This document shows positions 17,609 through 49,215 of a stretch of DNA of 64,000 nucleotides, piece after piece; the first letter of the stretch is position 1, and the number at the start of each line of letters is the position of its first letter. This DNA comes from Escherichia phage JS98. The stretch lies in the sequence record NC_010105.1; one strand, 5' to 3'. Made by a program: the position numbers and the translations under genes. The notes beneath the pieces are model-generated. The model did no database searches. It saw only the letters and a program-made list of their open reading frames with translations, and had not been told where the DNA came from.

Positions 17609-17609
17609 T

Positions 17610-17903: not shown

Positions 17904-17931
17904 TTTTAACTCCTCATTAGTGGATAGGTCT

Positions 17932-17961
17932 ATAGTATCACTACCATAGACCGATGTAAAC
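17932..17961 (-). promoter_or_regulatory. early promoter
   Basis: GTTTAC-N18-TACTAT. Confidence 0.55.
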
Positions 17962-17962
17962 T

Positions 17963-23657: not shown

Positions 23658-24190
23658 TTATTCACCTTATTTTCAATATATTCGTTCAGACGTTTTAATT
23701 CTACCATATCAACATTAAGCAAATTATTATGGCCGTCATGGTTTAAGATTTTAAACACGTTTTCAAAACATGTTTCGTATTGCCGGATAGTTAGGTTGAA
23801 CTCATCTTTGGTTAATTTAATAAGGTCGTCTTCGAAGTCTTCGTCTAATGGATTACGAGTTAAAATAACCTCGATAACGTTAAATTCGGATTTAAACCCT
23901 TTCCAATCTTCCAGTTCTACATAAGGGTCCATTTCACCACGAAGGAATCCTGAGTAAACAATATTACTTGGATAACCACGGTCAAGGATATAAACGAAAT
24001 TAGGGTCTAAAAACTTATACAGAGTTTCAACTAAAGCCTTATCGTTATCAGTTCCTAATGAAATACACTTGCCATTAATCTTTTTAGGAAAATCAATAAG
24101 GCGGTATTTCTTATTGGATAACAGATTTTTAATTAAAGTGGACTTCCCGGAATTATCCGGGCCGTCTATAACAATGATTTTTGGATTCAT
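23654..24190 (-). CDS. P-loop kinase (dNMP/nucleoside kinase-like)
   Basis: 178 aa; Walker A GPDNSGKST; DRGYPS (DRY-like) motif; ATGA coupling at both ends. Confidence 0.6.
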   Translation of the reverse strand: MNPKIIVIDGPDNSGKSTLIKNLLSNKKYRLIDFPKKINGKCISLGTDNDKALVETLYKFLDPNFVYILDRGYPSNIVYSGFLRGEMDPYVELEDWKGFKSEFNVIEVILTRNPLDEDFEDDLIKLTKDEFNLTIRQYETCFENVFKILNHDGHNNLLNVDMVELKRLNEYIENKVNK

Positions 24191-24570
24191 GGATGATAGG
24201 CCTTATAACTATCAAGAGTTCCTTCACGAACCATTTCTTTAAAGTGGTCAGGACGGATTGCTCGGTCATCGATGATAAAAGTATAACTCGGCTTGTGTGT
24301 AAGCAAATTGTGATATTTCAATCCAATTTTTTCAAGGTTCTTAACCAATGCAGGAACTACTTCAACCAAGATTCGACCTGGGCCACATGAAGTCATGCCA
24401 CGGGCGGTGAACAATGTAATCTCGTACCCTTCATCATAAAGCTTATTAATCATGGACACCATTTCGGTGTCCGGTTTAAAGTTCTCATAATCACGGTCAT
24501 GGTTCCAAATCGTGATTGTGTTATCGATATCAAAACATAAATGTGGCTTATTTTCTACTCGATGCGACAT
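24187..24570 (-). CDS. HAD-superfamily phosphatase
   Basis: HAD motif I CFDIDNTIT, motif II LFTAR; start placed at ATG 24570 (TAATG coupling); 24585 is alternative. Confidence 0.6.
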   Translation of the reverse strand: MSHRVENKPHLCFDIDNTITIWNHDRDYENFKPDTEMVSMINKLYDEGYEITLFTARGMTSCGPGRILVEVVPALVKNLEKIGLKYHNLLTHKPSYTFIIDDRAIRPDHFKEMVREGTLDSYKAYHP

Positions 24571-26243: not shown

Positions 26244-26303
26244 TATCTGTTCCTCAAGTGAATGTAGGTACATTATACACTATTTTTAATAAATTTCTAT
26301 TGC

Positions 26304-26804
26304 TTAAATCTTATCTTTACCGTATTCCATGCACTGTTCTACTGCAGCAGGCACTTTGGTCTTAAGCTTGTTGATTTGTTTCTTATAATCACGGGCCTTA
26401 TCGAAGCTCTCGGTTTCGAGCATTTCGTAATAACGAGCCTCATGGACAGAAATCTGTAAATTGATATGGTTTACACACATAGAATACAGTTTCTGCTTTT
26501 TGTACAAATCATCTTGGCGCTTCATTTCTGCCTGGTGTTTGGCTAGTACCGCTTCACGCTTAGACTCTTGTTCACGTTGGAATTCGATTTCCCTTTGAGC
26601 ATATTTTGCACAGTTATTACCACATTGATTATTAGCTCGGGTGTACACAAGTCCAGAACCGGCACGGAATTTCATTTCGCCGTCGAATTGTTTCTGTTCA
26701 GCTGCGATACGAGCTTTACCAACTTCATCAGCAGAAACTGCACCACCGTATTGGACTGCGCAACCTGATAGGAGCATACTCATTGCGATAATTAACTTTT
26801 TCAT
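26304..26804 (-). CDS. putative lipoprotein
   Basis: 166 aa; MKKLIIAMSMLLSGC lipobox. Confidence 0.5.
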   Translation of the reverse strand: MKKLIIAMSMLLSGCAVQYGGAVSADEVGKARIAAEQKQFDGEMKFRAGSGLVYTRANNQCGNNCAKYAQREIEFQREQESKREAVLAKHQAEMKRQDDLYKKQKLYSMCVNHINLQISVHEARYYEMLETESFDKARDYKKQINKLKTKVPAAVEQCMEYGKDKI

Positions 26805-26811: not shown

Positions 26812-26949
26812 TCAATTAAAACAGTTATACTTAATTTGTGCTATAAGAATAATCCATCCCATGATTAATGTTGGAATCATTGGAGGAATTGCCACTGCCC
26901 AATAAATGGTAAAGGCAGCCATTATAAGAAATAAAATAATTATCTTCAT
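26812..26949 (-). CDS. small hydrophobic membrane peptide
   Basis: 45-aa ORF not in track; ATGA overlap with imm-like stop. Confidence 0.35.
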   Translation of the reverse strand: MKIIILFLIMAAFTIYWAVAIPPMIPTLIMGWIILIAQIKYNCFN

Positions 26950-27182
26950 TGTTTAACGATAATGATTTGTGCGTTTGATTTACGTTCAGCGACGATAGCC
27001 CAGATTAAAGCCACTACCCAACCAATCATTGTCCATCCTAACAGGAGATTAAGGAAGAAGATTCCGACATTGCTACGAGTGCCTCGCAGAAGAGCTAGAA
27101 TCCATGGTAAAAAGTAACCAATGAACATAATAACCAGAGAACCAAATCCTAAAACACCAGCACTAACGATTAAAGCTTCCAT
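26946..27182 (-). CDS. imm: Imm-like membrane protein (superinfection immunity position)
   Basis: 78 aa, two TM helices; between 42 and 43 as T4 imm. Confidence 0.5.
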   Translation of the reverse strand: MEALIVSAGVLGFGSLVIMFIGYFLPWILALLRGTRSNVGIFFLNLLLGWTMIGWVVALIWAIVAERKSNAQIIIVKQ

Positions 27183-27244: not shown

Positions 27245-29956
27245 TTAAAAGTCGAACATGTCAAATAATGTGGCTTTTTTCTCGTAGTCGATTTTAGCAG
27301 ACTCAGTAAAACCAGTCAATGGTTTGATAAAGGTCTTTTGGAACAGTACGTTGTAGTCCATCCAACGGAGGACTTGGTCACGAATCTGAATCGGAAGTTC
27401 AATACCTGACGGCCATGCCATACAAGCTTCACCGAACGGGTTGCCTTCTTTAAGTGGCAGTACATATACCTTTTCACCATCAACGATACGAGGCATAGTC
27501 AAATCACCAGCAGAAGCACGCATGTAAGCTAAGCAACCTTTGATGTGGTACGGGCATTTAGAACCAGGGAAACCGCCTTCATTATATTTCTCAATGTTGT
27601 TAGCACTGGATACTGCAGCAATGCTTACATAGTCTAATTCGTTAAATTCTTTATTAAACTGTTTGAAATATTCTTGCAAAGAGGCCTCGCCTTCTTGAAG
27701 CATACGACGGATGCATTCTTTCAGTGCTTTCTGAACCGCTTTAGGTGTACTTGATTTCTGGGTTTCGAGACCCATGATTTTCAAGTGTGGTTCGGCATAA
27801 CGAGTACCTTCCATGTCCCAAACGTTCAGTGCATAACGTTTCTTGCCTGTCCAGAATCCACCAAGACCTTTAGAACCAAGTGGAGGACCAGCGATAGCTT
27901 CTCGGTCCATGAACATCAAGTGCTGTTTATTGTTCATGTATTCACACATCTCACGGAAGCCTGCATCAATAGCTGGTTCCATACGTTCACGTGCAAATTT
28001 ATCTAAGAAGTCAACCCAGTGGTTAGTATCACGGAATTTGTCTTCGCCTACTTTATTGATGATTGCATCAGCCTTAACATAAATGGAGTCGGTATCACCA
28101 TAGAGCACGAACTTCTGGTTTTCGGTCTTACATACGCTATTCAGATATTCGTTAACCTTACGTTCAATCCATTGGAGGGCCATTTGACCAAACAATGTGA
28201 TTGCAGTTGCGTTCCTGAGGTCATAGTAACGGAACCATACGTTACCAAGTGCACCATAAAGGGAGTTGATAAGCAACTTACGGTTAATCTGAGCAGTCAT
28301 ACCTGCGACTTCAGTACGTTCGGCTTTGAACAACATTTCTTTTAAAGAAGATGCTGACAATTTTTTAATCTGGGCTTTGATTTCGTCAGAGAAGTCGAAA
28401 CGATAATCGATATCCAGTGGACTATCAACAGATGGATTAGGATTTTCTAATGCTTCTTTAATTAACTCACCGTTACGTTGAGCTGCAAGCATATAACCTT
28501 TATGTTCTTTACGCTGTAAGAACACCTTCGTGATTTCTGTAGGAATCACACCATCACGGTCTTTATAGTACATCATGCCGTTAGGAGAGCAACTGTAGGT
28601 ATCGCTAGGACGCGGAGCAGTTCCGGCAATATATTCATGTATCGGTGCGTTGGCGAATGTCCCTGCGATGGTCTCTGGGCTTATATTCACTTGACGAATG
28701 ATACTCGGGTACAGAGATGTAAGGTCGAAACTCATTACATATTTGTACGCATTAGGAATAGGTTCCTTAACGAAAGCACCTGGATAAGGTTGAACCGCAT
28801 GCGATTTGGCCTGAGGAATAACTTTACCCTGTTCTTTAAGGCTATTAAAGATAATAGCGTCCCAAGTCTTAATTGGACTGAACACCGACTGAATCTGCAT
28901 CTTGGCATAGTAACCCATGTCCAGACTAAGAAGAATGAACTGGCGTTTCATATCAATCTGCACAACACGATATACGTCGATAATGTTATAGGAAATATAT
29001 CGTTGGTGGTTCGTCTCACGTAACTTGGAGATAGGACCATCATATTTCAACTTACCTACTTTCAATTCATATTCAGAAACATAATCCAGAGAATAAGAAG
29101 GCTGGTTGGTAAAGCTGAATTTTTTATAAAGGTCGATATAATCCAGAACAGAAATACCGAACAGTGTAATAATTTCACGAACACCGTACATATTCTCGAT
29201 AACTTTAACACGAGTCTTACGATGTGGGCTTAATCGCTTAGCAGTGTTCTCACCAAACAGATTTTTCAGACGGTTATAAACGTATGGCACGTCAAATGAT
29301 TCAACGTTCCATCCAGTCAAAATCACAGGAGTTTTCTGTTGCCAGAAATTCAGATACTCAAGCATCATTTCTTCTTCAGAATTAAACGGAAGATAAACGA
29401 TTTTGTCAATGATTTCCTGTGGAACTTCGTCACCACCTTCGTCTTGGAGTTTCTCAGCGATTTTAATCGACCACTCTTTAACTCGCCCATATGGCGAATT
29501 CAGTAAATCAAATACATAGAATTTATCGTCAATCGAGTCGTAGTGAGTAATGGCATCGATAGGATGTTTAGCCTGAGCAGGTTCAGGGAATCCATCAGGA
29601 GATGTTACCTCGATGTCGAAGTTAGCAATACGAATCTTGGAAGAATCATACTTGATTTCTTTACGATAGGTATCAGACAAATAGGCTAATTTATAGTCGT
29701 CCATACCAAGGGCTTCGAGACCCATATCGTCCATGCGCTTCATCCACTGAGAAGCATCACGCATTGAATCGAATTCTTTCTTAACACAGCCCTTACCGTA
29801 GATGTCAATATATTTTACGGCTTGCTCTGGGTTAGCATGCATAAACATTGTAGGCTTGTAAGGAACTTCACGACTACGTTCGTTACCATTTTTATCGATG
29901 TAACGTTCGAGAATATTATCACCGATTTGTTCGACTGTCAAATAGAATTCTTGCAT
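27245..29956 (-). CDS. 43: DNA polymerase gp43 (family B)
   Basis: start re-placed to ATG 29956 (MQEFYLTVEQIGDNILERYID) with SD AAGGAA; collinear with T4 gp43. Confidence 0.95.
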   Translation of the reverse strand: MQEFYLTVEQIGDNILERYIDKNGNERSREVPYKPTMFMHANPEQAVKYIDIYGKGCVKKEFDSMRDASQWMKRMDDMGLEALGMDDYKLAYLSDTYRKEIKYDSSKIRIANFDIEVTSPDGFPEPAQAKHPIDAITHYDSIDDKFYVFDLLNSPYGRVKEWSIKIAEKLQDEGGDEVPQEIIDKIVYLPFNSEEEMMLEYLNFWQQKTPVILTGWNVESFDVPYVYNRLKNLFGENTAKRLSPHRKTRVKVIENMYGVREIITLFGISVLDYIDLYKKFSFTNQPSYSLDYVSEYELKVGKLKYDGPISKLRETNHQRYISYNIIDVYRVVQIDMKRQFILLSLDMGYYAKMQIQSVFSPIKTWDAIIFNSLKEQGKVIPQAKSHAVQPYPGAFVKEPIPNAYKYVMSFDLTSLYPSIIRQVNISPETIAGTFANAPIHEYIAGTAPRPSDTYSCSPNGMMYYKDRDGVIPTEITKVFLQRKEHKGYMLAAQRNGELIKEALENPNPSVDSPLDIDYRFDFSDEIKAQIKKLSASSLKEMLFKAERTEVAGMTAQINRKLLINSLYGALGNVWFRYYDLRNATAITLFGQMALQWIERKVNEYLNSVCKTENQKFVLYGDTDSIYVKADAIINKVGEDKFRDTNHWVDFLDKFARERMEPAIDAGFREMCEYMNNKQHLMFMDREAIAGPPLGSKGLGGFWTGKKRYALNVWDMEGTRYAEPHLKIMGLETQKSSTPKAVQKALKECIRRMLQEGEASLQEYFKQFNKEFNELDYVSIAAVSSANNIEKYNEGGFPGSKCPYHIKGCLAYMRASAGDLTMPRIVDGEKVYVLPLKEGNPFGEACMAWPSGIELPIQIRDQVLRWMDYNVLFQKTFIKPLTGFTESAKIDYEKKATLFDMFDF

Positions 29957-30016
29957 TTCATTTCCTTTATAGACGAGTGATTGTCTTTTGTTTGTTGATG
30001 AATAATTATACTCCAA

Positions 30017-32931: not shown

Positions 32932-33393
32932 TTAAGCAATAACGATCATTTGTTTACGAATGGATTCAGGCAGAGATTCAATATACTCTGGAATCTGGGA
33001 AGCAACAATAGCACCGGCTTCAAGCAACTGCTCATCAGGGTCGACGCAATAATCATCTTCTAAACGTTCAGAACCGTCGCGGTCGATAACAAGTTTAGCA
33101 CCTGCAGCCAGTGAATCATTATAATGGCGACGCATAATTTCTACCCACTTATCAGATACGTCGTTATCAATAATACCGTAGAGCATGAACTTAGTTTCTT
33201 GTGGAAGAGACTGCAATCGACGTGCGGAGTTGGTATCAATATTCAGTACCCATGATTTACGGATACGGTTCTGATTATGTGGGTTGGAATCAGTACGGAT
33301 GGTTTTAACTTGGATATCTTTAACGGTAACGCCATTAGAAGTAGCAAACATAATATTTTCTCTCATTTGGTTGGTAAATGTATTATAAATCAA
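32932..33393 (-). CDS. hypothetical protein (rpbA position)
   Basis: 153-aa ORF between 45 and 46; start uncertain. Confidence 0.4.
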   Translation of the reverse strand: MIYNTFTNQMRENIMFATSNGVTVKDIQVKTIRTDSNPHNQNRIRKSWVLNIDTNSARRLQSLPQETKFMLYGIIDNDVSDKWVEIMRRHYNDSLAAGAKLVIDRDGSERLEDDYCVDPDEQLLEAGAIVASQIPEYIESLPESIRKQMIVIA

Positions 33394-33407
33394 TATTTTA
33401 AAGCAAT

Positions 33408-33599
33408 TTAATCAAAGTACTCGTAGACAAACCATGCTGGATTTCTATTTGACATGATTGTAACATATTCTGACTTAAAAGCATTTTGGAGATAATCTTC
33501 AGTAACAAGATGTTCGTCTCCAGAGAAGTTGTTAACTAAAACATATCTCTTTATTTCCGGGGCGGCCAACAAATGCTGGCCTGTTATAAAATCACTCAT
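33408..33599 (-). CDS. hypothetical protein (45.2 position)
   Basis: 63 aa; ATGA overlap with gp46 stop. Confidence 0.4.
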   Translation of the reverse strand: MSDFITGQHLLAAPEIKRYVLVNNFSGDEHLVTEDYLQNAFKSEYVTIMSNRNPAWFVYEYFD

Positions 33600-35278
33600 T
33601 CCATCACCGTGAATCGTCCAACTTTCTTCATTTGAAGATGTTGGCCATAAGCTTGTGGGTCATGGTCTCGGTGAGAGATAATGAACACGTTCGTATCCTC
33701 AAGGCTATTCAAGATGGTTGCAATGCTCTTAACGCCTTCAGCGTCAGTTGCACTGTCAAATACCTCATCAAGAATCAGTGTGGATATATTAACACCTGAT
33801 ACCCTAGAAGCAATATCACGCCATGTAAAAAGAAGTGCGATATCAATACGTGCTTTCTCACCCTGTGAAAATGAAGCATAACTAAAGTCTTCACGTCCAC
33901 GTGATTTAATCGTCTCATTGAATTCTTCGTCTAGGGTAAAGACGTAGTCCGCTTCCATAATCTTCAAATAAGAATTAATCTGCTTATTAAAGATAGGAAT
34001 GTATTTCTTAATAATGGAACCTTTAATACCGGTATCCTTCAACATTTCTGTCAGAATTCCACGATGATATTTTTCCATTACCAAGGACGATTTGGTAGAG
34101 ACGATTTTATCAAGCTCTGCTTGAAGCGCAGCAATCTCTTCGGCATTACTTACGAACTCAGCTGCTGCCTGGTCAATTAATACCTTAACCTTTTTAGCTT
34201 TCTCTACAGCAGTAATGGCTTGCTGTTTATGAGTAGCTATCTGAGATTTAATAGCCAACGCTTTATTGCGTTGTTCTGCTACTTGGTCTTTAATGAGCTT
34301 GAGCTCTTGGTACTGCTCATTAATCTTATCCAAAGATTTTTGAAGCTCAAAGTTTTTATCCTTAATTTTAGTAAGGATATTACCATGCTCTTCTAACCCT
34401 TGCATACACGTAGGGCAGTGACCACCGGTTTCGTATAACTTAACTACCTTTGTAAAGGTTGCCATATCATTTTTGATTGCAAATCCTTTATTACTCAGGT
34501 CACTCATGGAGTCGCTAGGGTCATCATCTACGATAACATTGAGTAATTCATCAGTCAGGGATTCTATGCTCGCCTTCGCAGTCCTGGCTTCTTTAACGAG
34601 CTCATCATACATTAATTGTAGACGGGCTGCGTTCTCACCAGATAATTTACGTTGACGTTCTTCGTTGTCGTTATAAATTTTAATTTGTTGGGTAATAGAA
34701 TCTTGCTTAACGTCTATTACTTGGATTTGGCTATTAGTCTCACGAATCAAAGATTTATTCAACTTATCCATATCCGCTAATACAGAAACCTCTAAGAGGT
34801 CTTCGACGAGTTTTCTTCTTGCAGGAGTGGATAGGCCCATAAAAGGGGTATATCCAGCTGTGCCGAGTACGACAATTTGTTTGAAGCTTGCATAGGACAT
34901 TCCGATAAGCTGTTCAAATTCCGCTTGGAAGTCTTTACTGCTGGCAGATTCATCAAGACGTTCACCGTCACAAGAGATTTCAAAAACGTTGGGTTTTTGC
35001 CCGCGTTTGATATAGTATTCTTTGCCATCATATTCCATCCACAGTTCGACCAAAAGGTCTTTCTTGTTACTTGAGTTAATCAACTGCCCTTTCTTAACAT
35101 CGCGAAAAGGCTTACCAAACAGAGCAAATGTTACAGCTTCAAGGAATGTTGATTTCCCTGCACCATTTTTACCAGTGACTAAGGTCTTTTGGACCTTGTC
35201 AAGTTGGATTGTAATAGGCTGCTGCCCTACCGACATAATATTTTTATACGTTACTTTCTTAAGCTTAAACGTTTTCAT
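33596..35278 (-). CDS. 46: recombination nuclease subunit gp46 (SbcC/Rad50-like)
   Basis: 560 aa; Walker A GKNGAGKST, signature SQGEKARIDIALLF; collinear with T4 gp46. Confidence 0.92.
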   Translation of the reverse strand: MKTFKLKKVTYKNIMSVGQQPITIQLDKVQKTLVTGKNGAGKSTFLEAVTFALFGKPFRDVKKGQLINSSNKKDLLVELWMEYDGKEYYIKRGQKPNVFEISCDGERLDESASSKDFQAEFEQLIGMSYASFKQIVVLGTAGYTPFMGLSTPARRKLVEDLLEVSVLADMDKLNKSLIRETNSQIQVIDVKQDSITQQIKIYNDNEERQRKLSGENAARLQLMYDELVKEARTAKASIESLTDELLNVIVDDDPSDSMSDLSNKGFAIKNDMATFTKVVKLYETGGHCPTCMQGLEEHGNILTKIKDKNFELQKSLDKINEQYQELKLIKDQVAEQRNKALAIKSQIATHKQQAITAVEKAKKVKVLIDQAAAEFVSNAEEIAALQAELDKIVSTKSSLVMEKYHRGILTEMLKDTGIKGSIIKKYIPIFNKQINSYLKIMEADYVFTLDEEFNETIKSRGREDFSYASFSQGEKARIDIALLFTWRDIASRVSGVNISTLILDEVFDSATDAEGVKSIATILNSLEDTNVFIISHRDHDPQAYGQHLQMKKVGRFTVME

Positions 35279-35499
35279 GTATTGTTCTCACGAATTGTTT
35301 GTTCAGCATATTCTAGCATTTCTTCGGAAGAAGCAAACACGTCGTCAAGTTCCATGGCCCATGAAACACCTTCAGAATATTCAGAAGTGACATACATAGT
35401 TCCGGTATACCAAGAACCATCCACGTCCCATTCTACATTACCGAACCAGCCATCGCCAATATGAAAATCATGTTTATACATTTTCATCATTATAAGCAT
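35275..35499 (-). CDS. hypothetical protein (46.1 position)
   Basis: 74-aa ORF. Confidence 0.4.
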   Translation of the reverse strand: MLIMMKMYKHDFHIGDGWFGNVEWDVDGSWYTGTMYVTSEYSEGVSWAMELDDVFASSEEMLEYAEQTIRENNT

Positions 35500-35737
35500 C
35501 CTTGATGCATGATTCAGCCATATGAATTAATGTTTCTGGAGTATCATCTACCATTACATTAAAGCTAAATTCTACAGCCCAATCGGTAGCAACATAAACT
35601 TTAATAAGCTCGCAGGTATCACGAGTGCTCACGGCTTCAAACCAGAACTTAATTGTACTAGGTTGGCCATCATCGTCAATAACTATACAGTCGTGTTCCA
35701 GTTCAAGTCCTGATTTTTTGAATTCATCTAAAGTCAT
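35474..35737 (-). CDS. hypothetical protein (46.2 position)
   Basis: 87 aa; ATGA overlap with gp47 stop. Confidence 0.4.
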   Translation of the reverse strand: MTLDEFKKSGLELEHDCIVIDDDGQPSTIKFWFEAVSTRDTCELIKVYVATDWAVEFSFNVMVDDTPETLIHMAESCIKDAYNDENV

Positions 35738-36756
35738 CGTGTAACCTCATTATAAAGTTGTGCGGTCATAGTCTTAAGGGCTTTAACATCTTCTTCAGTG
35801 TGGCCATCAGGAAGGGCGTCGATATAATCATACATCATATCCAAGAGGGATTTAACTTCATCTTCCTCTTCAGAATCATCGATATCAACACTATTATCTA
35901 CCTTAGACACGATACGTAAAGAGTGAACAACCTTTTCAAGCTCTGATTCGAACTTAGTAAGGCCGTCATCGATTTTATCGACTATAACACGAACTGCGAT
36001 ATTTGTAAAATCTTTGTAATCGATAGTCGCATTAGGATAATGAATCTTACGATGCCAACAGGTTTCATTAATGATGAAATCCATTTTATGAGTTTCGGTA
36101 TCGAAAATCCAGAAACCACGAGGGTCGTTCTCATCACCTGCAGTCAGGGTCCATGGAGTACCAATGTACTTAACGTTTGCTGCATCAGAAATAGTGTGGA
36201 AGTGGCCTGACCAAACTTGCTTATACTTTTTAAGGAAATCAGGTTCTAAACCATGGGATTTCATTCCTTTATAGAAATAGAAACCATTTAATTCCCAATG
36301 ACCAACACAGAAATCTGCTGTAGTATTTTTGATATGGTCCATGATATCAGTCGTGTTTTCTTCACACATCCATGGAATCAAATCAATTTCGGTGCCATCA
36401 AAGTTAACCGTAGTAGGTTTTTCAATAACCTTGATATGGTCATATTTACCCAGAACTTCAGAAGCTGCGTTAGGAGTCAAGGTATTTTTGTAGTGCATAT
36501 CATGATTACCAACAATGGTATACATGGTAATGCCATTAGCTTTAAGCAAATCAGAGATTTCGCGAGCGAATTCCATACACTTATGGGTAATTGCTTTACG
36601 AACGTCAAAGATATCGCCGTATTGAATCCATACGGTAATACCATTTGCTTTAGAATAATCAATAGCGTCTTGGATACCTTGACGTTGGATATTTTGTACC
36701 CACACATCATCGGCCTTCACTCCAAGGTGCCAGTCACCTGTGTTTAATATTTTCAT
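35734..36756 (-). CDS. 47: recombination nuclease subunit gp47 (SbcD/Mre11-like)
   Basis: start re-placed to ATG 36756 (MKILNTGDWHLG); track start 36783 is TTG; ATGA overlap with upstream small ORF. Confidence 0.9.
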   Translation of the reverse strand: MKILNTGDWHLGVKADDVWVQNIQRQGIQDAIDYSKANGITVWIQYGDIFDVRKAITHKCMEFAREISDLLKANGITMYTIVGNHDMHYKNTLTPNAASEVLGKYDHIKVIEKPTTVNFDGTEIDLIPWMCEENTTDIMDHIKNTTADFCVGHWELNGFYFYKGMKSHGLEPDFLKKYKQVWSGHFHTISDAANVKYIGTPWTLTAGDENDPRGFWIFDTETHKMDFIINETCWHRKIHYPNATIDYKDFTNIAVRVIVDKIDDGLTKFESELEKVVHSLRIVSKVDNSVDIDDSEEEDEVKSLLDMMYDYIDALPDGHTEEDVKALKTMTAQLYNEVTR

Positions 36757-36896
36757 AAGCCGAGCACCGTTATCGCAATGCAAAATAAAATTATTGAGAT
36801 GAACCCATCAGGAGTAGAAAAGAATCCTATCCAACAGGCTCGTGTGAATGTGTAGAATGCCATGAATAACACGACATATCCTAAAAGTAATTCCAT
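36753..36896 (-). CDS. small membrane peptide
   Basis: 47-aa ORF not in track; SD GAGGAGA; stop overlaps gp47 ATG. Confidence 0.4.
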   Translation of the reverse strand: MELLLGYVVLFMAFYTFTRACWIGFFSTPDGFISIILFCIAITVLGL

Positions 36897-36916
36897 ATGT
36901 TCTCCTCAGTTGGTTC

Positions 36917-36940
36917 ATTTTATCATCCGAATATAAAGCA
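36917..36940 (-). promoter_or_regulatory. middle (MotA-box) promoter
   Basis: minus strand TGCTTTA-N11-TAAAAT. Confidence 0.45.
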
Positions 36941-36942
36941 AA

Positions 36943-36962
36943 AAAGGAGCCTAAGCTCCTTT
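36943..36962 (-). terminator. intrinsic terminator
   Basis: aaaggagc-ctaa-gctccttt; minus strand followed by TTTTTTGC. Confidence 0.5.
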
Positions 36963-37212
36963 ACCAATTAATACACCATACAGAGGTTCATGAGAAGACC
37001 TGAACTTGATAGGCTTATAGGTAATAGTACCTTCATTTTCCGCTTTAATACGAGCAGCTTCAAATTTAAGTATCATCTCATTTTTGTCAGATTTAATCTT
37101 ATCAAAATCCATCGAATTCGTCATTCATAAAACCTCTTAAACTTTTTCGTATTCGTCATTCATAGCTTAAAAATCCGGATGTTCGTCTTTCATTAGCCAC
37201 CTGTCCATGTTA

Positions 37213-37413
37213 TCATCGTTGCCACCACTTCTTAAGTTGATGTGAATCCACCCAAACCTTGGCTACAGGCTCAATCCGAAAAATTTCATCGGAATACTGC
37301 CCAACCATTTTATATTCGGTTTCAGTCTGCTTAATACAAATATTACCGTATGAGCGAAGTCTGAAGGCGGCTCCAATAAGAAGCCGTTTAAAGGGTTTAT
37401 TTACTAGCGCCAT
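37213..37413 (-). CDS. hypothetical protein
   Basis: start placed at internal ATG 37413; weak. Confidence 0.3.
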   Translation of the reverse strand: MALVNKPFKRLLIGAAFRLRSYGNICIKQTETEYKMVGQYSDEIFRIEPVAKVWVDSHQLKKWWQR

Positions 37414-37708
37414 TGATAATTTCCCAAATCTGTTTACGCGTAGTTTCCCACATAACTCTAACGATTTCGTCAGTAGTTGGTTGACGGTAAATACCACGTA
37501 ATTTAATTATAGCATATTTGTAAGCTTCGAAATTGTTTTCGAGAACAGCGCCCTGAGCATGTGTATTAAGACGCTTAATTTCACGGGCATTCTTTTTAAG
37601 AATTTTGGCAGCTTGAGAAGCGGCTTCTTTAGCATTATTCTCTTCTAAACGCTTCTGGGCTTCTTCAATTTGCTCTTCGGTCAATTGAGAAATGTCGGTG
37701 CTTTGCAT
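37397..37708 (-). CDS. hypothetical protein
   Basis: 103-aa ORF, coiled-coil-like. Confidence 0.4.
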   Translation of the reverse strand: MQSTDISQLTEEQIEEAQKRLEENNAKEAASQAAKILKKNAREIKRLNTHAQGAVLENNFEAYKYAIIKLRGIYRQPTTDEIVRVMWETTRKQIWEIINGASK

Positions 37709-37709
37709 A

Positions 37710-37937
37710 TTAATCCTTGTAATTCAGTTTTATATAAAAATCTTCGTCGGTAACGTGATAGTTATAAGTTAATGTTCCTTTTTCAGCTTTAATTTCTACC
37801 GAATCAGGGTGTTTTGGGTCTATTACAATAGGAAGCTTGGCAATATCCTTAAGATACATTTTAAGAACATAAGGAATTGCCGAATACTCTCCATCTACTT
37901 CTTCTAAAAGGCCTACCAGGTTAATCTTGAGTTCCAT
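37710..37937 (-). CDS. hypothetical protein
   Basis: start placed at ATG 37937 ([10 protein letters not shown]). Confidence 0.4.
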
Positions 37938-38478
37938 ATAAAAAATCCAGCTCACCAACTTTAGATTCAGCGCTCTTATCAGACCCTGGCGCTTTAACTA
38001 AAGAGGTTTCATACTGAGTCATTTTGTCGTAAATATCCTGGATAAAAGTTTCATCTGCGATACCTACCATGTCGTCGTCATTGGCGTCATAAACGTTATG
38101 GACGAAGTAGCTGTATTTCTTTGCCATTTCTTTACGTTCTTTCTTGATACGCTGAACAAAGGCATTAAAACAAGCCATAGTGATATATGCATGTGGGTTG
38201 TCGTATTTTGTTTCGTCGAAGTTATGAAGACCTTTAATAGAGGCTTCGATTCCATCAGCAATCATTTCTTGCTTCCAAGATTGGGTATATCCGGAGAAGT
38301 TGAACCGCTTAGAAAGGCCTTCAGCAATGAGCATAATAGCCAAGCCGATAACGTCGTTCTGACGAACTATTTTATTAGGGTCGGTATTTTCTCGGAGTTC
38401 CGTTTTCCACTGGGTAATGGCTTTCAGAAGCTCCTTATTATTTACATAGTTATTTTTAGTCAGTTTAATTTCGGTCAT
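37921..38478 (-). CDS. 55: late sigma factor gp55
   Basis: 185 aa; NYVNNKELL...[36 protein letters not shown] near-identical to T4 gp55 as recalled. Confidence 0.93.
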
Positions 38479-38517
38479 TGTTACCTCAGATAACTCAAAT
38501 CATAGGTCTATTATATC

Positions 38518-38544
38518 ATAGTATTTGGAGACCCGTTTAAAGCA
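38518..38544 (-). promoter_or_regulatory. middle (MotA-box) promoter upstream of gene 55
   Basis: minus strand TGCTTTA-N14-TACTAT. Confidence 0.45.
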
Positions 38545-38808
38545 TCAACGGAGTAAGCAATAAGCCTGAAATACTGTTTCAAGGATTTGTATGAACTCGG
38601 GATAAGAAATTGTATCAGTACATCCATGTTCGGACATATATCCGCAAAATTCTTTAAAAAGTTCCGGATAATCCCGATGGTTGTATTTGGAAATATGAGA
38701 CTTCCATACTAAAGAAGTCTCACCACAAACAAACTCAACATCCATACAGTTATCTATTAAGAAAAATCCGAGACCTTCATAAGCGAGGGTGGTGGATATG
38801 GGTTTCAT
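38545..38808 (-). CDS. hypothetical protein
   Basis: 87-aa ORF. Confidence 0.35.
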   Translation of the reverse strand: MKPISTTLAYEGLGFFLIDNCMDVEFVCGETSLVWKSHISKYNHRDYPELFKEFCGYMSEHGCTDTISYPEFIQILETVFQAYCLLR

Positions 38809-39071
38809 TGTAGGAATCGAGCTCCTTCTAATGCATCATCAAGATTATCAAACTCATCGACGTAATCAATACCGCCAACTTCATCTTTAGCGTATAGCCA
38901 GTACCGTTTAAATTCATATTCGATAATAAAGTGGTCACCTTCAATCTGGAGAGCCCCATCACCATTAAATTGGACTGCATAACCTGTAAAGCGGACATCA
39001 TTCAGGAGTTCTTCTTTCATAGCAATCATTTCCAAGTTTTTATCGTAATTAGAGAGTTTTATTTTAATCAT
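38805..39071 (-). CDS. hypothetical protein
   Basis: 88-aa ORF. Confidence 0.35.
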   Translation of the reverse strand: MIKIKLSNYDKNLEMIAMKEELLNDVRFTGYAVQFNGDGALQIEGDHFIIEYEFKRYWLYAKDEVGGIDYVDEFDNLDDALEGARFLQ

Positions 39072-39397
39072 TTCGCAGCCTTAACAATTTTCAGGTCAAC
39101 GAATTTTTTCTTACGCTGGTTCTTCATACGACGGATGGTTTTGTCTGTGATTTCACCTGGGTGCCAAGCTTTAGATTCAACACCGAAGGCAGCAACATCA
39201 AACTCATCAAGAATATATTGAACCAGGATTTCACGAATACCGTTCTTACCAATTTTTTGGTCTTTAGAGTGCATGATTGGTAACAGTTCAGCAACCCATT
39301 GGTCAAGAACCTGAGGAGTTACAAAGCCAGTTTTCATCAGTTCATTAACTTTATCGAAAGCGAAAGAGTTCAGTACGTTTTTAATAGCTTGTGACAT
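39068..39397 (-). CDS. hypothetical protein
   Basis: 109-aa ORF. Confidence 0.4.
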   Translation of the reverse strand: MSQAIKNVLNSFAFDKVNELMKTGFVTPQVLDQWVAELLPIMHSKDQKIGKNGIREILVQYILDEFDVAAFGVESKAWHPGEITDKTIRRMKNQRKKKFVDLKIVKAAK

Positions 39398-39465
39398 AAT
39401 AATTTCCTCAGTTTAAAATTTATAATCCGTGGGACCATTATACTCTGGTCCCAAGAGTTTGTAAA

Positions 39466-39666
39466 CTATTTTTGTGCTAGTGCGCCTTTCCAACCTTCAT
39501 ACATCGCGGCGGCTGATATTAATATTGCTCCTGCGCATTTTGAATATTTGTTATTCCAAAACCAGTTTAGAAAAACTTCGTCATCAATACCTTGAGCTAC
39601 CATATTTTCAAAGAACTGACGACGGGCTTCAGCAATTCGTTGTGATAATTTAGATTCAGGATTCAT
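39466..39666 (-). CDS. hypothetical protein
   Basis: 66-aa ORF. Confidence 0.35.
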   Translation of the reverse strand: MNPESKLSQRIAEARRQFFENMVAQGIDDEVFLNWFWNNKYSKCAGAILISAAAMYEGWKGALAQK

Positions 39667-40588: not shown

Positions 40589-40906
40589 CTAATCTTCAAT
40601 TAAATCTCGGTCATAGCCAAGTTCAATCAAAAGGGATTTGAAGGCAGGAATATTTTCTATTTTCTTATTATCAACAAAGATTACAGGATAGCGTATAGCT
40701 AAGCTCTTGAAGCCAGCACGTTTGGCCAATGATACTATAAGAGGCTTATCATATACTGCGCCTGACGGCGTCTGGTTAATTACAGGATAGAAAGTATATT
40801 GGATAGAAAGGGAATTTAGGAGCGATAGAACTGCAATGCACCCTGGACAGCGCATGACCGTCTCAGGGATACCGTAAATCTCAATTTTAGTTAACTTTTG
40901 GTCCAC
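40589..40906 (-). CDS. glutaredoxin/NrdH-like thiol-disulfide protein
   Basis: CPGC active-site motif after beta-strand KIEIYG; proposed GTG start 40906 with SD AGGAG; ATG 40954 is alternative. Confidence 0.5.
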   Translation of the reverse strand: MDQKLTKIEIYGIPETVMRCPGCIAVLSLLNSLSIQYTFYPVINQTPSGAVYDKPLIVSLAKRAGFKSLAIRYPVIFVDNKKIENIPAFKSLLIELGYDRDLIED

Positions 40907-41183
40907 AGGAAATAACTCCTTGGTAGTCCCAAGTTTTGATAACTTCGTCTTCATTAGTTCCATACGGGATGTAAATCTGGATAAGGAACCCAGTATCATC
41001 AAAAGAGAAGTAGACGGTAGGTTTAATACCGTGAATCTCTGAAAGAGCATAGATGTCCTTGAGGTCATCTTCCTTACCGATAAAGAATTCTGGGTTCAGG
41101 TCACAGTCATGGAAGTACCATTCTTGGCCAAACTTGTCCCAAGCCGCCCAATCAGTAGCTACATACTCTTCAAAACGTTTCAT
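40887..41183 (-). CDS. hypothetical protein
   Basis: 98-aa ORF. Confidence 0.4.
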   Translation of the reverse strand: MKRFEEYVATDWAAWDKFGQEWYFHDCDLNPEFFIGKEDDLKDIYALSEIHGIKPTVYFSFDDTGFLIQIYIPYGTNEDEVIKTWDYQGVISCGPKVN

Positions 41184-41407
41184 TCTTTCACCTTCATCAT
41201 TTTAGAAATAACACTATGAACAGACTGGATTCGTTTTTCGAACTCAGACTCTTCAAGACCCTTTTCAGTACTCAGCGCACCAATCATCACAAACAGCAAT
41301 CCAAATGGGATAACCAGGATTAAAAGGCACACAATAAACAGGACAAATGTAATATTGGCCAGGATATCAGAAGCAGCATTACGAAATTTATTCATACGAT
41401 AGTCCAT
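41180..41407 (-). CDS. hypothetical membrane protein
   Basis: 75 aa with one TM segment. Confidence 0.4.
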   Translation of the reverse strand: MDYRMNKFRNAASDILANITFVLFIVCLLILVIPFGLLFVMIGALSTEKGLEESEFEKRIQSVHSVISKMMKVKE

Positions 41408-41501
41408 GTATTAGTTACAACAAATAACCATTGAGCAGGATACTCAACACCCATGCGCCGGATAATATCATTCATAGATTCGGTTAAGGCGTAAAAATTA
41501 A

Positions 41502-41975
41502 TCATTTAAGCGATTTCCTCAGTTGTTTTTTAAATGAATCAACCATTTGTTTCTTTGTGTCAGATTCATTATAAGTCATTCCATGTGAAAGCATTTCAGC
41601 AATCATTTCTTCCTTACCTAATCTACTGAACTCTTTGGTTTTATCAGGAACGAAATTAGGATGGATATTGTTTTCAGTGTAATCAGATTTCAGATAGACC
41701 AGCAAATTCTCTAACCATTCGAGGTAGTCAACGTTTTGACCTTTAAGACCAGAACGGTTGAACTTATGCTTCATTTGTCCTTCTGCAGCATTGCACAGGT
41801 TACATAGTAAACCACGAACCTTACCAGCTTTTGGCCCGCTCAATTCATGGTCGTGGTCAAGGTGGTTACTTTGAACATCAGGGTTTAATTCACGTTTACA
41901 AATCAAACACTTACCACATTGTGCATCATAAAGTTTTTGTTTTTCTTCTTTGTATAATTTGCCGGTCAACAACAT
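41502..41975 (-). CDS. 49: endonuclease VII (Holliday junction resolvase) gp49
   Basis: 157 aa; MLLTGKLYKEEKQKLYDAQCGKCLICKRELNPDVQSNHLDHDHEL near-identical to T4 gp49 as recalled. Confidence 0.93.
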   Translation of the reverse strand: MLLTGKLYKEEKQKLYDAQCGKCLICKRELNPDVQSNHLDHDHELSGPKAGKVRGLLCNLCNAAEGQMKHKFNRSGLKGQNVDYLEWLENLLVYLKSDYTENNIHPNFVPDKTKEFSRLGKEEMIAEMLSHGMTYNESDTKKQMVDSFKKQLRKSLK

Positions 41976-43940: not shown

Positions 43941-44142
43941 CTCGCTCAAATCGGTGTTTACAATGACGGCATTTATACTGAAGCGGATTATGACGCCATT
44001 GAACCAACTGGACCTGTTCAGTTCCACATTCAGGACAGTTTGGAACATTCTTAGAAGCTTTTTCACGACGTTCGACAATTTTAATAACAGCATTCCAATC
44101 AGGAATAGTTTGGTCAATATCGTCAGCTAATTGGTATTTCAT
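43921..44142 (-). CDS. zinc-ribbon protein
   Basis: 73 aa; CPECG...CRHCKH. Confidence 0.45.
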
Positions 44143-45146
44143 TTCAACAGCTCCAGGGCTTGTTCCAGTTTATCCAGACGATTGGTAGACTCTTCCCAAA
44201 GTTTCTTGGCAGCAGTATATTGTCCGGTCAGTTTTTTGTTAATAGCCAAGGCATCTTTATACGCTTTTTCTAAGGCAACGATTTCCGGTAACTTGGATTT
44301 AGTAATTGGTGTATGGGCCATGATAGGGCTGTTCAAGTCGTTAATCAAGTCTTCTAATGTAGCAGGCTCTTTATCAGTGTTCACAATTTCCTCACATTTT
44401 TCTTGGTAAATTTCAGCATCGGTTTTTGGAACAGGGCATTTGATTTCGCGAACTGTTACTAAAACTTCATATCCTTTCCAGCCTAAGTGGTGGTTGATTT
44501 CTTGAATCTCATATTTCTCTACTGTATCCATCAAAGCTAAAGCTTGTTCTACAATATTCAGGGTATTGTAGGAAATATCTTGGTATTTCGAAACTTCAAC
44601 TTCTTTAGGTTTCCAACTAGGCGACCAAATAATAGAAATAAGTACCTTCCCTTTATAGTTGTTTGTTTTAATCATGCCATCAGCCATAGGGTGGATAGTA
44701 CGACAATCACCCTTTACAAAGGTTTTGGTTGCTGCTTTTAGAATTAATGCGGAGTTAGCCTTAAATTCACCGGCCCAACGTAAAGGAAATAAGCCCTTAG
44801 GGTCGGTACCTTTCATTTTGATATAGCTTTTTAAAACATCACCAAACCATTGGTAGCTAACAACGTGGCTGGAACCTGGGTGTTTCTCTCTGCCAAACTC
44901 TGAAAGGATATCCTTATTAACCAGCCGCGAAAGCAGTCGAGAACCTTTAAATGTATCTATGATATCAGGGATAAACAAACGCCCTGCAATCTTTTCGATT
45001 TCATCTTTGAAACAACCGGATAAGGCTTTATCAATTTGGTCTACCCATTTATTGATATTGGAAACTATCACCTCATATGGGGTTAATGGAGGGGTATTGT
45101 CAGTGATATACTTAGTAAAGGCATTGATGTATTCAGTACGGGTCAT
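44139..45146 (-). CDS. hypothetical protein with C-terminal coiled coil
   Basis: start re-placed to ATG 45146 (MTRTEYINAF) with SD GAGGAGA. Confidence 0.5.
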   Translation of the reverse strand: MTRTEYINAFTKYITDNTPPLTPYEVIVSNINKWVDQIDKALSGCFKDEIEKIAGRLFIPDIIDTFKGSRLLSRLVNKDILSEFGREKHPGSSHVVSYQWFGDVLKSYIKMKGTDPKGLFPLRWAGEFKANSALILKAATKTFVKGDCRTIHPMADGMIKTNNYKGKVLISIIWSPSWKPKEVEVSKYQDISYNTLNIVEQALALMDTVEKYEIQEINHHLGWKGYEVLVTVREIKCPVPKTDAEIYQEKCEEIVNTDKEPATLEDLINDLNSPIMAHTPITKSKLPEIVALEKAYKDALAINKKLTGQYTAAKKLWEESTNRLDKLEQALELLK

Positions 45147-45174
45147 GATATTCTCCTCAGTAGTTGATAAAAGG

Positions 45175-45204
45175 ATTATACTCCATCCGTCCTTGGATGT
45201 AAAC
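45175..45204 (-). promoter_or_regulatory. early promoter
   Basis: GTTTAC-N18-TATAAT. Confidence 0.5.
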
Positions 45205-45205
45205 A

Positions 45206-46099
45206 CTATTTTAGAGCTAATAGTGCCGCGCTGAGCTTGTCACGCTGGTTTTCCATATTCTTGATGCGAATCAATACGTCTTGAATGCTCTTTTTCTCAT
45301 CTTCAATCTGACCATTTAAACGGTGGATTGATTCCTGAATGCTATCTGCATAATAGGTCTCAATAGGTTTCATCGTAGGGTTAGTAACAACCAAAGAATT
45401 ATCAGGTTTAATTTTCCAATGATATGGTTTGGAATTGAATGGACTAGGCACAGCAGTGGTTTTGAATTTATCATAGGCTGCATACTGGCCTACGCTGTCA
45501 CATGATACTGCAGAGATACGACGTTCCATTTGTGGGTCCTTTTGTTGGGATTGATAAGGGGCATAAGACAAAAGATATTCACGAGTTAGTTTAACATTAA
45601 AATACACTGCATCGGCTCGCCCAGAACAATCAGCGTATTCATCGGTTGTAACTTTATATGATTCTACGGCCTTAATACGAGTCATTGCTTCTCTGAATAA
45701 GGTTTCGAATGCTTCACGAAGGGCCTTATTACCTTTTGAGGTAGGACGGAAACGAACTTGAATACCGTCAGCCAGAATATTAATGACTAGGTTACGAGCC
45801 GTAAAATTAATACTTTTGATATTAACAGGAACCGTAGAAATACGCCCTGCAGTGGCCAAGAGGTCTTTGATATTAGCCCGCAATGTTGCACCAAACAGGT
45901 GGGCTGGGCAACGGCAATAATCGTTCAAAGAACCGATATAAGTTCCTTTACGGCCTACACCATAAGTATAATTACCATTACAAATATGACCAAAGTCAGC
46001 TAGCCGATCGATAGCGATACGACGAGTCGTGTCATGGTCGTATATAGAGTATTCTTTACGTGTTTTAATGTTCATATTAAAGTCCAAATAATTTTTCAT
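45206..46099 (-). CDS. hypothetical protein with C-terminal coiled coil
   Basis: 297-aa ORF. Confidence 0.5.
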   Translation of the reverse strand: MKNYLDFNMNIKTRKEYSIYDHDTTRRIAIDRLADFGHICNGNYTYGVGRKGTYIGSLNDYCRCPAHLFGATLRANIKDLLATAGRISTVPVNIKSINFTARNLVINILADGIQVRFRPTSKGNKALREAFETLFREAMTRIKAVESYKVTTDEYADCSGRADAVYFNVKLTREYLLSYAPYQSQQKDPQMERRISAVSCDSVGQYAAYDKFKTTAVPSPFNSKPYHWKIKPDNSLVVTNPTMKPIETYYADSIQESIHRLNGQIEDEKKSIQDVLIRIKNMENQRDKLSAALLALK

Positions 46100-46376: not shown

Positions 46377-47222
46377 TTAATCCTTAAGAAGATTTAGGAT
46401 ATCGATATATTTCTGGCGTTCAGCCTTAGCTTTGGCATTTAGACCAGAGAGTCGGAAAATCTCATCATCTTGTTGTTGGATTGTAACATTCAAGCAAGTA
46501 AGCAAATTGCTAAAATACTCAATTTGGGCTTGATGTTTCTCATTGCTGCGCACTGGTGCAGGTTCCATTTTAGGAGCTTGTTCTGAATGCTCTTCAGCCA
46601 GGTCTTTAATTTTATAAAGTTTAATACGCTGACCTACTCCAGTTTCAGCATCACCAAAACTAAGAACACCGTGCTGTTCTAATTCAGACAGGGCCAAGCG
46701 CAGATGGAACTTCCAGTTGTCGTATTGACACCCACTGTAATGGGAAATAGTATACTCGTTTTCATTTCTTGGATGATTAACAATATTAAAGATAATCCAA
46801 TCACCTGAACCGTTAGTCTTAAAGGTCATTTGTTTATCTTGACCTTTTGCAAGGCGAGCACCAAGGGCCAGTAGACGACGTTGATTAGTATTAAGGTCTT
46901 TAACAACTTCATCAAATGTCATCGCCGGGATTAAACGACCATAAAGGTCGTAGCCTTTGTTATAATTTTTAAGAATAATTTTGGCATTAGCACGAGACAA
47001 CATACCTGTTTTACGAAGAGTTTTCATGACTCGGTCTTCTAAGGTAAACGAACCTTTAGTCTTGTCAAAGATTTTAATGAAGTCATCTTTAACAGTACAA
47101 ACATTGAACTTGTCCCACATCATATATAGGACCTTTTCAACTACTTCTTTAGAACTAGGAATACGACCAAATTTAACAACTTTTTTAACTTCAGAACGAA
47201 TTTGATTAATTGCTTGTGACAT
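46377..47222 (-). CDS. hypothetical protein with C-terminal coiled coil
   Basis: 281-aa ORF. Confidence 0.5.
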   Translation of the reverse strand: MSQAINQIRSEVKKVVKFGRIPSSKEVVEKVLYMMWDKFNVCTVKDDFIKIFDKTKGSFTLEDRVMKTLRKTGMLSRANAKIILKNYNKGYDLYGRLIPAMTFDEVVKDLNTNQRRLLALGARLAKGQDKQMTFKTNGSGDWIIFNIVNHPRNENEYTISHYSGCQYDNWKFHLRLALSELEQHGVLSFGDAETGVGQRIKLYKIKDLAEEHSEQAPKMEPAPVRSNEKHQAQIEYFSNLLTCLNVTIQQQDDEIFRLSGLNAKAKAERQKYIDILNLLKD

Positions 47223-48219: not shown

Positions 48220-49215
48220 TTATTTCAGAAGGGTAACTTCAGCGATTTCGCTCCAGTCATTTTTATCGGTGGCAATGAAGTCCGCCAGATAAAGAGCTGT
48301 ACGTAATGATACGTTACGAAGACGAGATACATTGGCCTTCATCCATGCTAGAGCTTGATAAGTCTCAGCATCAGTCAGACCTCGGTTTTGCATCATATCG
48401 GTGGACAGGATAACGTCTTCAACACGAACCATAATCTCTTCATTCGAGTGAACTCCGAGGTCTAAGTAAACTGAACGAGATACTAAAGCTTGGAGGTGTG
48501 GAGCAAGTTTAGTTCCACGCTCTAATTCACGGTCAATATCAACGTTGGTGATGAACACGATGGTGCCTTCGTATTCGAATTCTTTATCGATATTTTTATC
48601 ATCGAGATAAGAACTTGAAGTGCTCCAGCATACCTTACGTTTCTCACCGGTATCCAATGCCGCTTTCAGAAGGTTCAGGATATCCATGTCAGAGAATACA
48701 TCAACATCATCAATAAGAAGAACACTATTAGGGCCGCGGTTATTCCAAAGTTGCTCGTAAAGACCGATTCCACTAATCTTTCCGTTGATTGATTTATATT
48801 CGATAGTTTCATTTTCGTGGGCATTTTGTAATGCTTTATCCAAAGAGTATGTTTTACCAATACCTGCGGCACCAGAGATGATAAGGGAACGAATTTTACC
48901 ATCGATGATTCCGTTAGTCATCATGTTCATTACTTTAAAACGTTTGTTGATGCGATGTTTCATTTCTTCAGCGGATTCAGTAACCGTTGCAGGTGCTTCA
49001 GCGCCTTCCATTTCAACGTCACATTTGAACACCCATACACCACGTTCAACACCATCAATCTGCACGAATACCTTGCCGTCACCGAGGTGAGCTTCAGATT
49101 CATGAATTTTATTAGGGAACCAGGTTTTACCTGAACTCATGAACGTACCAGAGATTTCATTACCGCGATAGATACCTTTGTTGATTTTGATAGTTAACAT
49201 TTTATTCTCCTTCAC
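48220..49215 (-). CDS. AAA+/P-loop ATPase
   Basis: 331 aa; Walker A SGAAGIGKT, Walker B VLLIDDVD. Confidence 0.55.
   Translation of the reverse strand: MKENKMLTIKINKGIYRGNEISGTFMSSGKTWFPNKIHESEAHLGDGKVFVQIDGVERGVWVFKCDVEMEGAEAPATVTESAEEMKHRINKRFKVMNMMTNGIIDGKIRSLIISGAAGIGKTYSLDKALQNAHENETIEYKSINGKISGIGLYEQLWNNRGPNSVLLIDDVDVFSDMDILNLLKAALDTGEKRKVCWSTSSSYLDDKNIDKEFEYEGTIVFITNVDIDRELERGTKLAPHLQALVSRSVYLDLGVHSNEEIMVRVEDVILSTDMMQNRGLTDAETYQALAWMKANVSRLRNVSLRTALYLADFIATDKNDWSEIAEVTLLK

Follow-up and report, generated by a model that had tools for sequence, protein, structure and literature searches.

T4 carries alpha-gt, the gene of an alpha-glucosyltransferase, between genes 47 and 55, and the corresponding interval of Escherichia phage JS98 (NC_010105.1) raises the question of why this gene is missing there and how the DNA of such a phage is modified. 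The DNA that we analysed is a stretch of 64,000 nucleotides, called the window throughout, in which the interval begins at position 36757. We propose that the phage does without both T4 glucosyltransferases, alpha-gt and beta-gt, because its DNA would carry arabinose on 5-hydroxycytosine instead of glucose on hydroxymethylcytosine, and we put the probability of this reading at roughly 0.8. Neither enzyme would be needed, as hydroxymethylcytosine, the substrate of both, would not be made. A preliminary description of this DNA, made from its letters alone, had read the missing genes as a sign of a modification chemistry other than that of T4, and this is supported by the genes at 22069-26273, which encode a ThyA homologue of the 5-hydroxydeoxycytidine monophosphate (5hodCMP) synthase type, a GT-B glycosyltransferase and enzymes predicted to make uridine diphosphate (UDP)-arabinose. 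Two points refine that description: the slot that beta-gt occupies in T4 is not free of a glycosyltransferase but holds a different GT-B enzyme, and the glycosylated base is predicted to be 5-hydroxycytosine and not hydroxymethylcytosine.

The interval was mapped from the listing of open reading frames (ORFs), the annotations of T4, JS10 and RB69, and tblastn searches with T4 proteins; all genes lie on the minus strand. It is bounded by gene 47 (35734-36756), encoding an SbcD/Mre11-like recombination nuclease subunit (PHROG_100, E 6e-136; 71% identity to T4 gp47), and by gene 55 (37921-38478), encoding the late sigma factor (phrog_234, E 3e-68; 78% identity to T4 gp55). The true start of gene 47 is the ATG at 36756 and not the upstream TTG at 36783, as residues 1-339 of T4 gp47 align from 36756. 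Between the two genes lie 47.1 (36753-36896), a predicted membrane protein of 47 residues that is 80% identical to T4 47.1, matches phrog_6693 (E 1e-30) and bears the same name in the JS10 annotation; a-gt.2 (36951-37124), a DUF5486 protein of 57 residues (Pfam PF17588, E 2e-20; 47% identity to T4 a-gt.2); a-gt.3 (37213-37413), of 66 residues, whose start is taken from the JS10 annotation (phrog_1648, E 2e-28; 45% identity to T4 a-gt.3); a-gt.4 (37397-37708), a DUF2654 protein of 103 residues (Pfam PF10849, E 1e-24; 43% identity to T4 a-gt.4); and a-gt.5 (37710-37937), a DUF5491 protein of 75 residues that overlaps the end of gene 55 (Pfam PF17595, E 1e-18; 51% identity to T4 a-gt.5). As all five match T4 counterparts and PHROG or Pfam families, these small ORFs are genuine conserved genes. 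In the T4 annotation 47.1 is followed by alpha-gt (1203 nucleotides), mobB (795 nucleotides) and a-gt.2, whereas in the window only 54 nucleotides separate 47.1 from a-gt.2, so that exactly alpha-gt and mobB are missing relative to T4. The position of alpha-gt is simply empty: 47.1 and a-gt.2 adjoin across one terminator and MotA promoter module.

An empty slot at this locus would also be seen if the phage glucosylates hydroxymethylcytosine and alpha-gt and/or beta-gt has been relocated outside the window, which covers 64 kb out of a genome of about 171 kb; in RB69 one transferase, gp3, does sit far from the main cluster. The remaining ~107 kb was judged through positions 60001-171451 of phage JS10, and the window together with this part of JS10 (the combined sequence) was searched by tblastn (E<0.1) and by phmmer on stop-to-stop segments of at least 50 residues. 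Across the combined sequence neither T4 alpha-gt nor T4 beta-gt gives a tblastn match at E<0.1 or a phmmer match below E 0.1, and the annotation of JS10 60001-171451 lists no glycosyltransferase. By megablast against the phage collection (queries 35000-39500 and 20000-44999) the window is 97-98.6% identical to Escherichia phages JS10, IME281, UP19, MN04 and CLB_P2; for JS10, IME281, UP19 and CLB_P2 a nucleotide identity of 97-98% spans both the 47-55 interval and the cluster from uvsX to gene 43. JS10 itself is 97.8% identical to the window over 25 kb, with coordinates approximately parallel from rIIA onward; its record is classified under Dhakavirus, Tevenvirinae, and by these identities the source phage is a T4-like coliphage of the JS98/JS10 type in that same genus. 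JS98 and RB69 were moreover reported to encode homologues of gene 42 and gene 56 without glucosyltransferase genes, the modification, if any, being left open (Petrov et al. 2010, PMC2993671). With this report, with no match to either gene in the searched positions 60001-171451 of so close a relative, and with a ThyA homologue that has a 5-hydroxylase signature and not the T4 gp42 residue, we consider relocation extremely improbable.

Searched against the window, T4 alpha-gt (400 residues) has its best tblastn match over 36 residues at E 0.027, and T4 beta-gt (351 residues; its gene lies between uvsX and gene 42 in T4) has a best E of 1.6. We reject the 36-residue match (24313-24420) as chance, since it lies in frame within a HAD phosphatase gene and reflects an N-terminal beta-strand/Gly-loop resemblance; the best phmmer match of alpha-gt (48220-49215, E 0.15) is an AAA-type ATPase by Pfam and was likewise rejected. 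Five further ORFs considered as hidden transferases, at 63021-63980 (DUF7275/DUF7277), 44139-45206, 46377-47222, 62029-62715 and 61442-62029, match uncharacterized phage families alone or, in one case, a membrane-protein PHROG, and were set aside. In the phage collection T4 alpha-gt has homologues in 657 records. A sample of 40, taken across the ranking, consists of phages of the T4 type from Escherichia, Shigella, Yersinia, Salmonella and Citrobacter (90-100% identity) and of Klebsiella/Raoultella phages (about 65%); no Dhakavirus record is found among the 40. The preliminary description had claimed that the interval has no alpha-gt and, besides small ORFs, just a terminator and a middle promoter, and that beta-gt is missing as well, and it had proposed a tBLASTn search with the two T4 proteins. 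Its account of the interval is accurate, as the five small ORFs, the 54-nucleotide gap, a terminator scan and a promoter pattern match attest; the absence of beta-gt is borne out by tblastn and phmmer, and the proposed search returns neither gene from the combined sequence.

The base on which a sugar could be placed is suggested by the enzyme at the gene 42 position. In T4 the order after uvsX is segA, beta-gt, gene 42, imm, imm.1 and gene 43, whereas the window has a different gene set between uvsX (20694-21866) and gene 43 (27245-30016). Here the gene 42 position is taken by a ThyA-superfamily enzyme of 232 residues (22959-23657, minus strand; Pfam PF00303, E 3.6e-13), a predicted flavin-dependent hydroxylase of deoxycytidine monophosphate (dCMP) at C5, that is, a 5hodCMP synthase. 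It is 80% identical to RB69 gp48, as against 24.5% to T4 gp42, and a PDB search matches it to 9iqu and 9iqc at E 2e-125 and to the T4 dCMP hydroxymethylase 1b49 at only E 1.5e-4. The sequence of the matched PDB chain is almost the same as that of RB69 gp48; we take 9iqu to be the enzyme of phage HY126, without proof, as its entry code belongs to one series with that of 9iqz, a glycosyltransferase of phage HY126 according to the PDB. In residue numbers relative to an E. coli ThyA fragment, the catalytic Cys146 is retained, aligning with the PCH motif of ThyA, and the enzyme has Glu at 143 (L143E) and Asp at 177 (N177D, the residue of dCMP specificity), like RB69 gp48. At position 169 it carries Asn (D169N), reading MRSQN as opposed to MRSND in T4 gp42 and QRSxD in both E. 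coli ThyA and JS10 td. Such an Asn, aligned with Asp169 of E. coli ThyA, is the diagnostic residue of 5hodCMP synthases, and RB69 gp48 converts dCMP to 5-hydroxy-dCMP with flavin and O2 (Lee et al. 2026, PMC13326640). From the 80% identity to gp48 and the match to 9iqu, the ThyA homologue of the window would thus hydroxylate dCMP with flavin and O2. At the time of the 2010 report the modification had yet to be identified and the ThyA homologue passed for a hydroxymethylase (PMC2993671), an assignment that the 2026 work changes to hydroxylase (PMC13326640). In RB69 the modification was shown to be arabose joined to C5 via an oxygen, in place of the arabinosyl-hydroxymethylcytosine that had been put forward in 2018 (Lee et al. 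2026, PMC13326640).

Next to this gene, between uvsX and the ThyA homologue, lies a gene for a protein of 297 residues (22069-22962, minus strand), whose counterpart position in T4 is that of beta-gt (and segA). The protein has no Pfam domain and a PDB sequence search gave nothing; it was identified by fold comparison alone, which assigns it a confident GT-B fold, and T4 beta-gt is not among its top 60 fold matches. Its identity to RB69 gp46 and gp47 is 65-70%; Lee et al. 2026 (PMC13326640) treat these two as a single gene that an error in sequencing has divided. The window therefore has a GT-B-fold protein of the RB69 gp46:47 type, a predicted first DNA arabinosyltransferase, and to judge from the fold model the beta-gt slot holds another candidate DNA glycosyltransferase, of the same fold class as beta-gt and with no detectable sequence relation to it. 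A profile of this family finds a single copy only in the combined sequence. A base without any sugar, either hydroxymethylcytosine or 5-hydroxycytosine, was a possibility raised for JS98 and RB69 in 2010 and left open (Petrov et al. 2010, PMC2993671), and the failure of Pfam and of the PDB sequence search to recognize the 297-residue protein as a transferase would agree with it. The confident GT-B fold speaks against an unsugared base, as do the conservation of the protein across at least 117 protein clusters, in which polar residues are invariant, the placement of its gene in an operon-like run with nucleotide-sugar enzymes, and the fact that its homologue belongs to RB69, a phage shown to be arabinosylated; we hold a bare base to be very improbable.

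The nucleotide-sugar enzymes follow on the same strand. At higher coordinates than the ThyA homologue lie genes for a thymidylate-kinase-like P-loop nucleotide kinase of 178 residues (23654-24190; 38% identity to RB69 gp45; phrog_761, E 1.5e-39), an AfhF-like HAD-type sugar-phosphate phosphatase of 132 residues (24187-24585; 62% identity to RB69 gp51; PDB 9iqw, E 5e-54) and an AfhE-like bifunctional sugar kinase/nucleotidyltransferase of 567 residues (24570-26273; 41-44% identity to RB69 gp52 and gp53), in which Pfam places an NTP_transferase domain at residues 13-110 and an APH domain at residues 356-427. RB69 gp51 has been equated with HY126 AfhF and RB69 gp52:53 with HY126 AfhE (Lee et al. 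2026, PMC13326640), and both an AfhE-type kinase/nucleotidyltransferase and an AfhF-type phosphatase are found in the window. Gene 56 (14727-15266, minus strand) encodes a dCTPase/dUTPase with 91% identity to RB69 gp56 and a Pfam dUTPase_2 match, the role of which is dCMP supply and dCTP depletion. The AfhE-like ORF begins with the ATG at 26273, and similarity to RB69 gp53 begins at a second ATG at 26243 (MKKVVILGAG...), which, by this alignment, may be the true start of the gene.

Several genes of RB69 have no homologue in the combined sequence: gp3, the second arabinosyltransferase, whose site, the interval from rIIA.1 to gene 39, is short in the window; gp55, the arabinose-5-phosphate isomerase; and gp50 and gp49. 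The base could then be 5-hydroxycytosine and the sugar other than arabinose, or more than one sugar could be added via an unrecognized transferase, and this would accord with the low identity of the AfhE-like enzyme to that of RB69 (41-44%), with the missing phage isomerase, and with the use of hexoses by other 5-hydroxycytosine phages, e.g. RL38J1 (Lee et al. 2026, PMC13326640). The 62% identity of the AfhF-like phosphatase to RB69 gp51 and its match to 9iqw favor arabinose, and no second transferase is found in the combined sequence with the Aat1 family profile, RB69 gp3, T4 alpha-gt or T4 beta-gt. E. coli itself makes arabinose-5-phosphate for Kdo synthesis via KdsD and GutQ, and a phage isomerase would therefore not be strictly needed. 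We regard another or an additional sugar as unlikely.

We propose the following model for DNA modification in this phage. The gene 42 counterpart, as a flavin-type dCMP 5-hydroxylase, would make 5-hydroxy-dCMP, and gp56 together with the nucleotide kinases would feed 5-hydroxy-dCTP into replication. After replication the single GT-B transferase would place arabinofuranose from UDP-arabinose on the 5-hydroxyl. UDP-arabinose would come from the AfhE-like kinase/uridylyltransferase and the AfhF-like phosphatase, and the arabinose-5-phosphate that they require would probably come from the host isomerases KdsD and GutQ, without a phage isomerase. The HY126 pathway starts from arabinofuranose-5-phosphate, and Shewanella phage Thanatos, with a single syntenic transferase, is mono-arabinosylated (Lee et al. 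2026, PMC13326640); by analogy with Thanatos the product here should be mono-arabinosyl-5-hydroxycytosine. Furthermore, Dhakaviruses are named among the carriers of the syntenic arabinosylation cluster (Lee et al. 2026, PMC13326640).

The empty slot itself offers a view of how the alpha-gt cassette may come and go. Between a-gt.2 and 47.1 the terminator scan finds an intrinsic-terminator hairpin, AAAGGAGC-TTAG-GCTCCTTT followed by a T-run (36943-36962, minus strand), with the stop codon of a-gt.2 located in its loop. Upstream of 47.1 a pattern match finds a MotA-box middle-promoter-like site, TTTTGCTTTA-N11-TAAAAT (36917-36943, minus strand), which, as a sequence match, is confirmed to fit the MotA-box/-10 pattern of T4 middle promoters. 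The window contains 10 matches to the pattern TGCTTNA-N11-13-TANNNT, where shuffles lead one to expect 3.2, and the transcribed minus strand holds 7 of them; the other sites include 139-162, 4867-4891, 33382-33405 and 55089-55114. The hairpin and GCTTTA module is invariant in JS10, and in the junction alignment its promoter part is invariant in both JS10 and RB69; in the RB69 copy, which directly precedes gene 47, the stem sequence differs and still pairs. In T4 (record positions 16560-18770) the alpha-gt slot has a hairpin and GCTTTA module at either end: the first, after a-gt.2 and before mobB, reads GGAGC-TTCG-GCTCC, then TATTGCTTTA-N12-TAAAAT, and the second, after alpha-gt and before 47.1, reads AAAGGGC-TTCG-GCCCTTT, then AGCTTTATACGGAG. 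The hairpin and GCTTTATA line up in all four junctions. Klebsiella phage Mineola (Jiaodavirus) has alpha-gt in the same slot between 47 and a-gt.2, with a hairpin/GCTTTA module on either side (3415-4775), so that the slot has two modules in T4 and Mineola and one in the window, JS10 and RB69.

Composite terminator/promoter motifs known as PeSL are thought to promote recombination that inserts or deletes segments of T4-like genomes (Arbiol et al. 2010, PMC2839356; Comeau et al. 2014, PMC4122927). Like them, the module at the slot combines a short stem-loop terminator with a promoter and coincides with the boundaries of an insertion or deletion between related phages, and we infer that the alpha-gt cassette may have been gained or lost by recombination between modules. 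By the sequences of gp46, gp47 and gp55, T4 and RB69 form the closest pair (76-89% identity), and both are at a similar distance from the window and from Mineola (66-80%); judged by these core genes the presence of alpha-gt is patchy. What it follows is which kind of ThyA-family enzyme sits at the other locus, a pattern to be expected if phages that lack hydroxymethylcytosine have no use for a glucosyltransferase. A choice between loss and original lack of alpha-gt was attempted from the same identities and gave no direction, the window and Mineola being about equally distant.

Several observations weigh against arabinosylation as proposed here. The absence of genes outside the window is judged from JS10 and not from the phage of the window itself. 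No chemical analysis of Dhakavirus DNA, liquid chromatography-mass spectrometry of virion DNA included, was found in the literature searched. The AfhE-like protein, at its level of identity to RB69 gp52:53, leaves the sugar specificity uncertain, and with homologues of RB69 gp55, gp50, gp49 and gp3 absent the pathway is not a copy of a characterized one. Finally, the published PeSL motifs carry early promoters, in contrast to the MotA (middle) box of the module at the slot.

Arabinosylation on 5-hydroxycytosine most reasonably places the window beside RB69 (Mosigvirus), where alpha-gt is likewise missing from the stretch between 47 and a-gt.2, the conserved terminator/promoter module is shared, and the cluster between uvsX and gene 43 includes a 5hodCMP synthase, a GT-B transferase, a HAD phosphatase, a kinase/nucleotidyltransferase and a P-loop kinase, in addition to gp56. 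The arabinosyl-5-hydroxycytosine pathway of RB69 and HY126 is reportedly also the subject of He et al. 2026, as cited by Lee et al., and it is known from both phages (Lee et al. 2026, PMC13326640). The gene order in the RB69 cluster differs, however, and its product is di-arabinosyl, as opposed to the mono-arabinosyl product expected here. Beside gene 43, where RB69 has the arabinose-5-phosphate isomerase, the window has imm (26946-27182, Pfam Imm_superinfect) and, at 26304-26804, an ORF of 166 residues with a lipoprotein-like N-terminus and no family match.

T4 (Tequatrovirus) shares with the window the backbone and the order 46, 46.1, 46.2, 47, 47.1, a-gt.2 to a-gt.5 and 55, and also the route from a dCTPase through a ThyA-family dCMP modifier and kinases to post-replicative GT-B glycosylation. 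In contrast to T4 the window is without alpha-gt, mobB, beta-gt and segA, and the sugar donor, which in T4 is host UDP-glucose, is predicted to be made by phage enzymes. On the minus strand of the window gene 46 (33596-35278) has its counterpart in the T4 annotation, and it is followed by 46.1 (35275-35499; DUF5487), 31% identical to T4 46.1 by tblastn, and by 46.2 (35474-35737), 50% identical to T4 46.2. The 46.1 homologue is present in the window and in CLB_P2-type relatives and is unannotated in JS10; it is the reason that JS10 covers only 95% of the query 35000-39500. T4 also has nrdG, mobC and nrdD between nrdH and gene 49, where the window has only two small ORFs (40592-41975, counted with nrdH at about 40592-40897 and gene 49, endonuclease VII, at 41502-41975); T4 nrdG and the C-terminal part of nrdD (anaerobic ribonucleotide reductase) have no tblastn match in the combined sequence. 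An Rfam scan of the whole window at gathering thresholds returned zero RNA families.

JS98/JS10-type phages are of the same genus and lack the same glucosyltransferases (Petrov et al. 2010, PMC2993671). That these genes are missing in them has been known since 2010, and the replacement pathway was published in 2025-2026. Only the reduced gene set, with one transferase and without an isomerase, may still merit experiment. Dhakaviruses could have a reduced arabinosylation pathway, with one transferase, no isomerase and no gp50, that yields mono-arabinosyl-5-hydroxycytosine only and depends on host KdsD/GutQ, a tentative proposal to which we give a little short of an even chance. If true, Dhakaviruses would rely on the host for KdsD/GutQ in a way that RB69-type phages do not, and might be vulnerable at that point. 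DNA modification in T4-like phages decides which restriction, CRISPR and type IV systems are escaped or triggered, and also recombination with relatives. As Dhakaviruses are used in phage-therapy cocktails, their grouping with arabosyl-5-hydroxycytosine phages, and not with those of glucosyl-hydroxymethylcytosine, would be useful for annotation and for the choice of phages.

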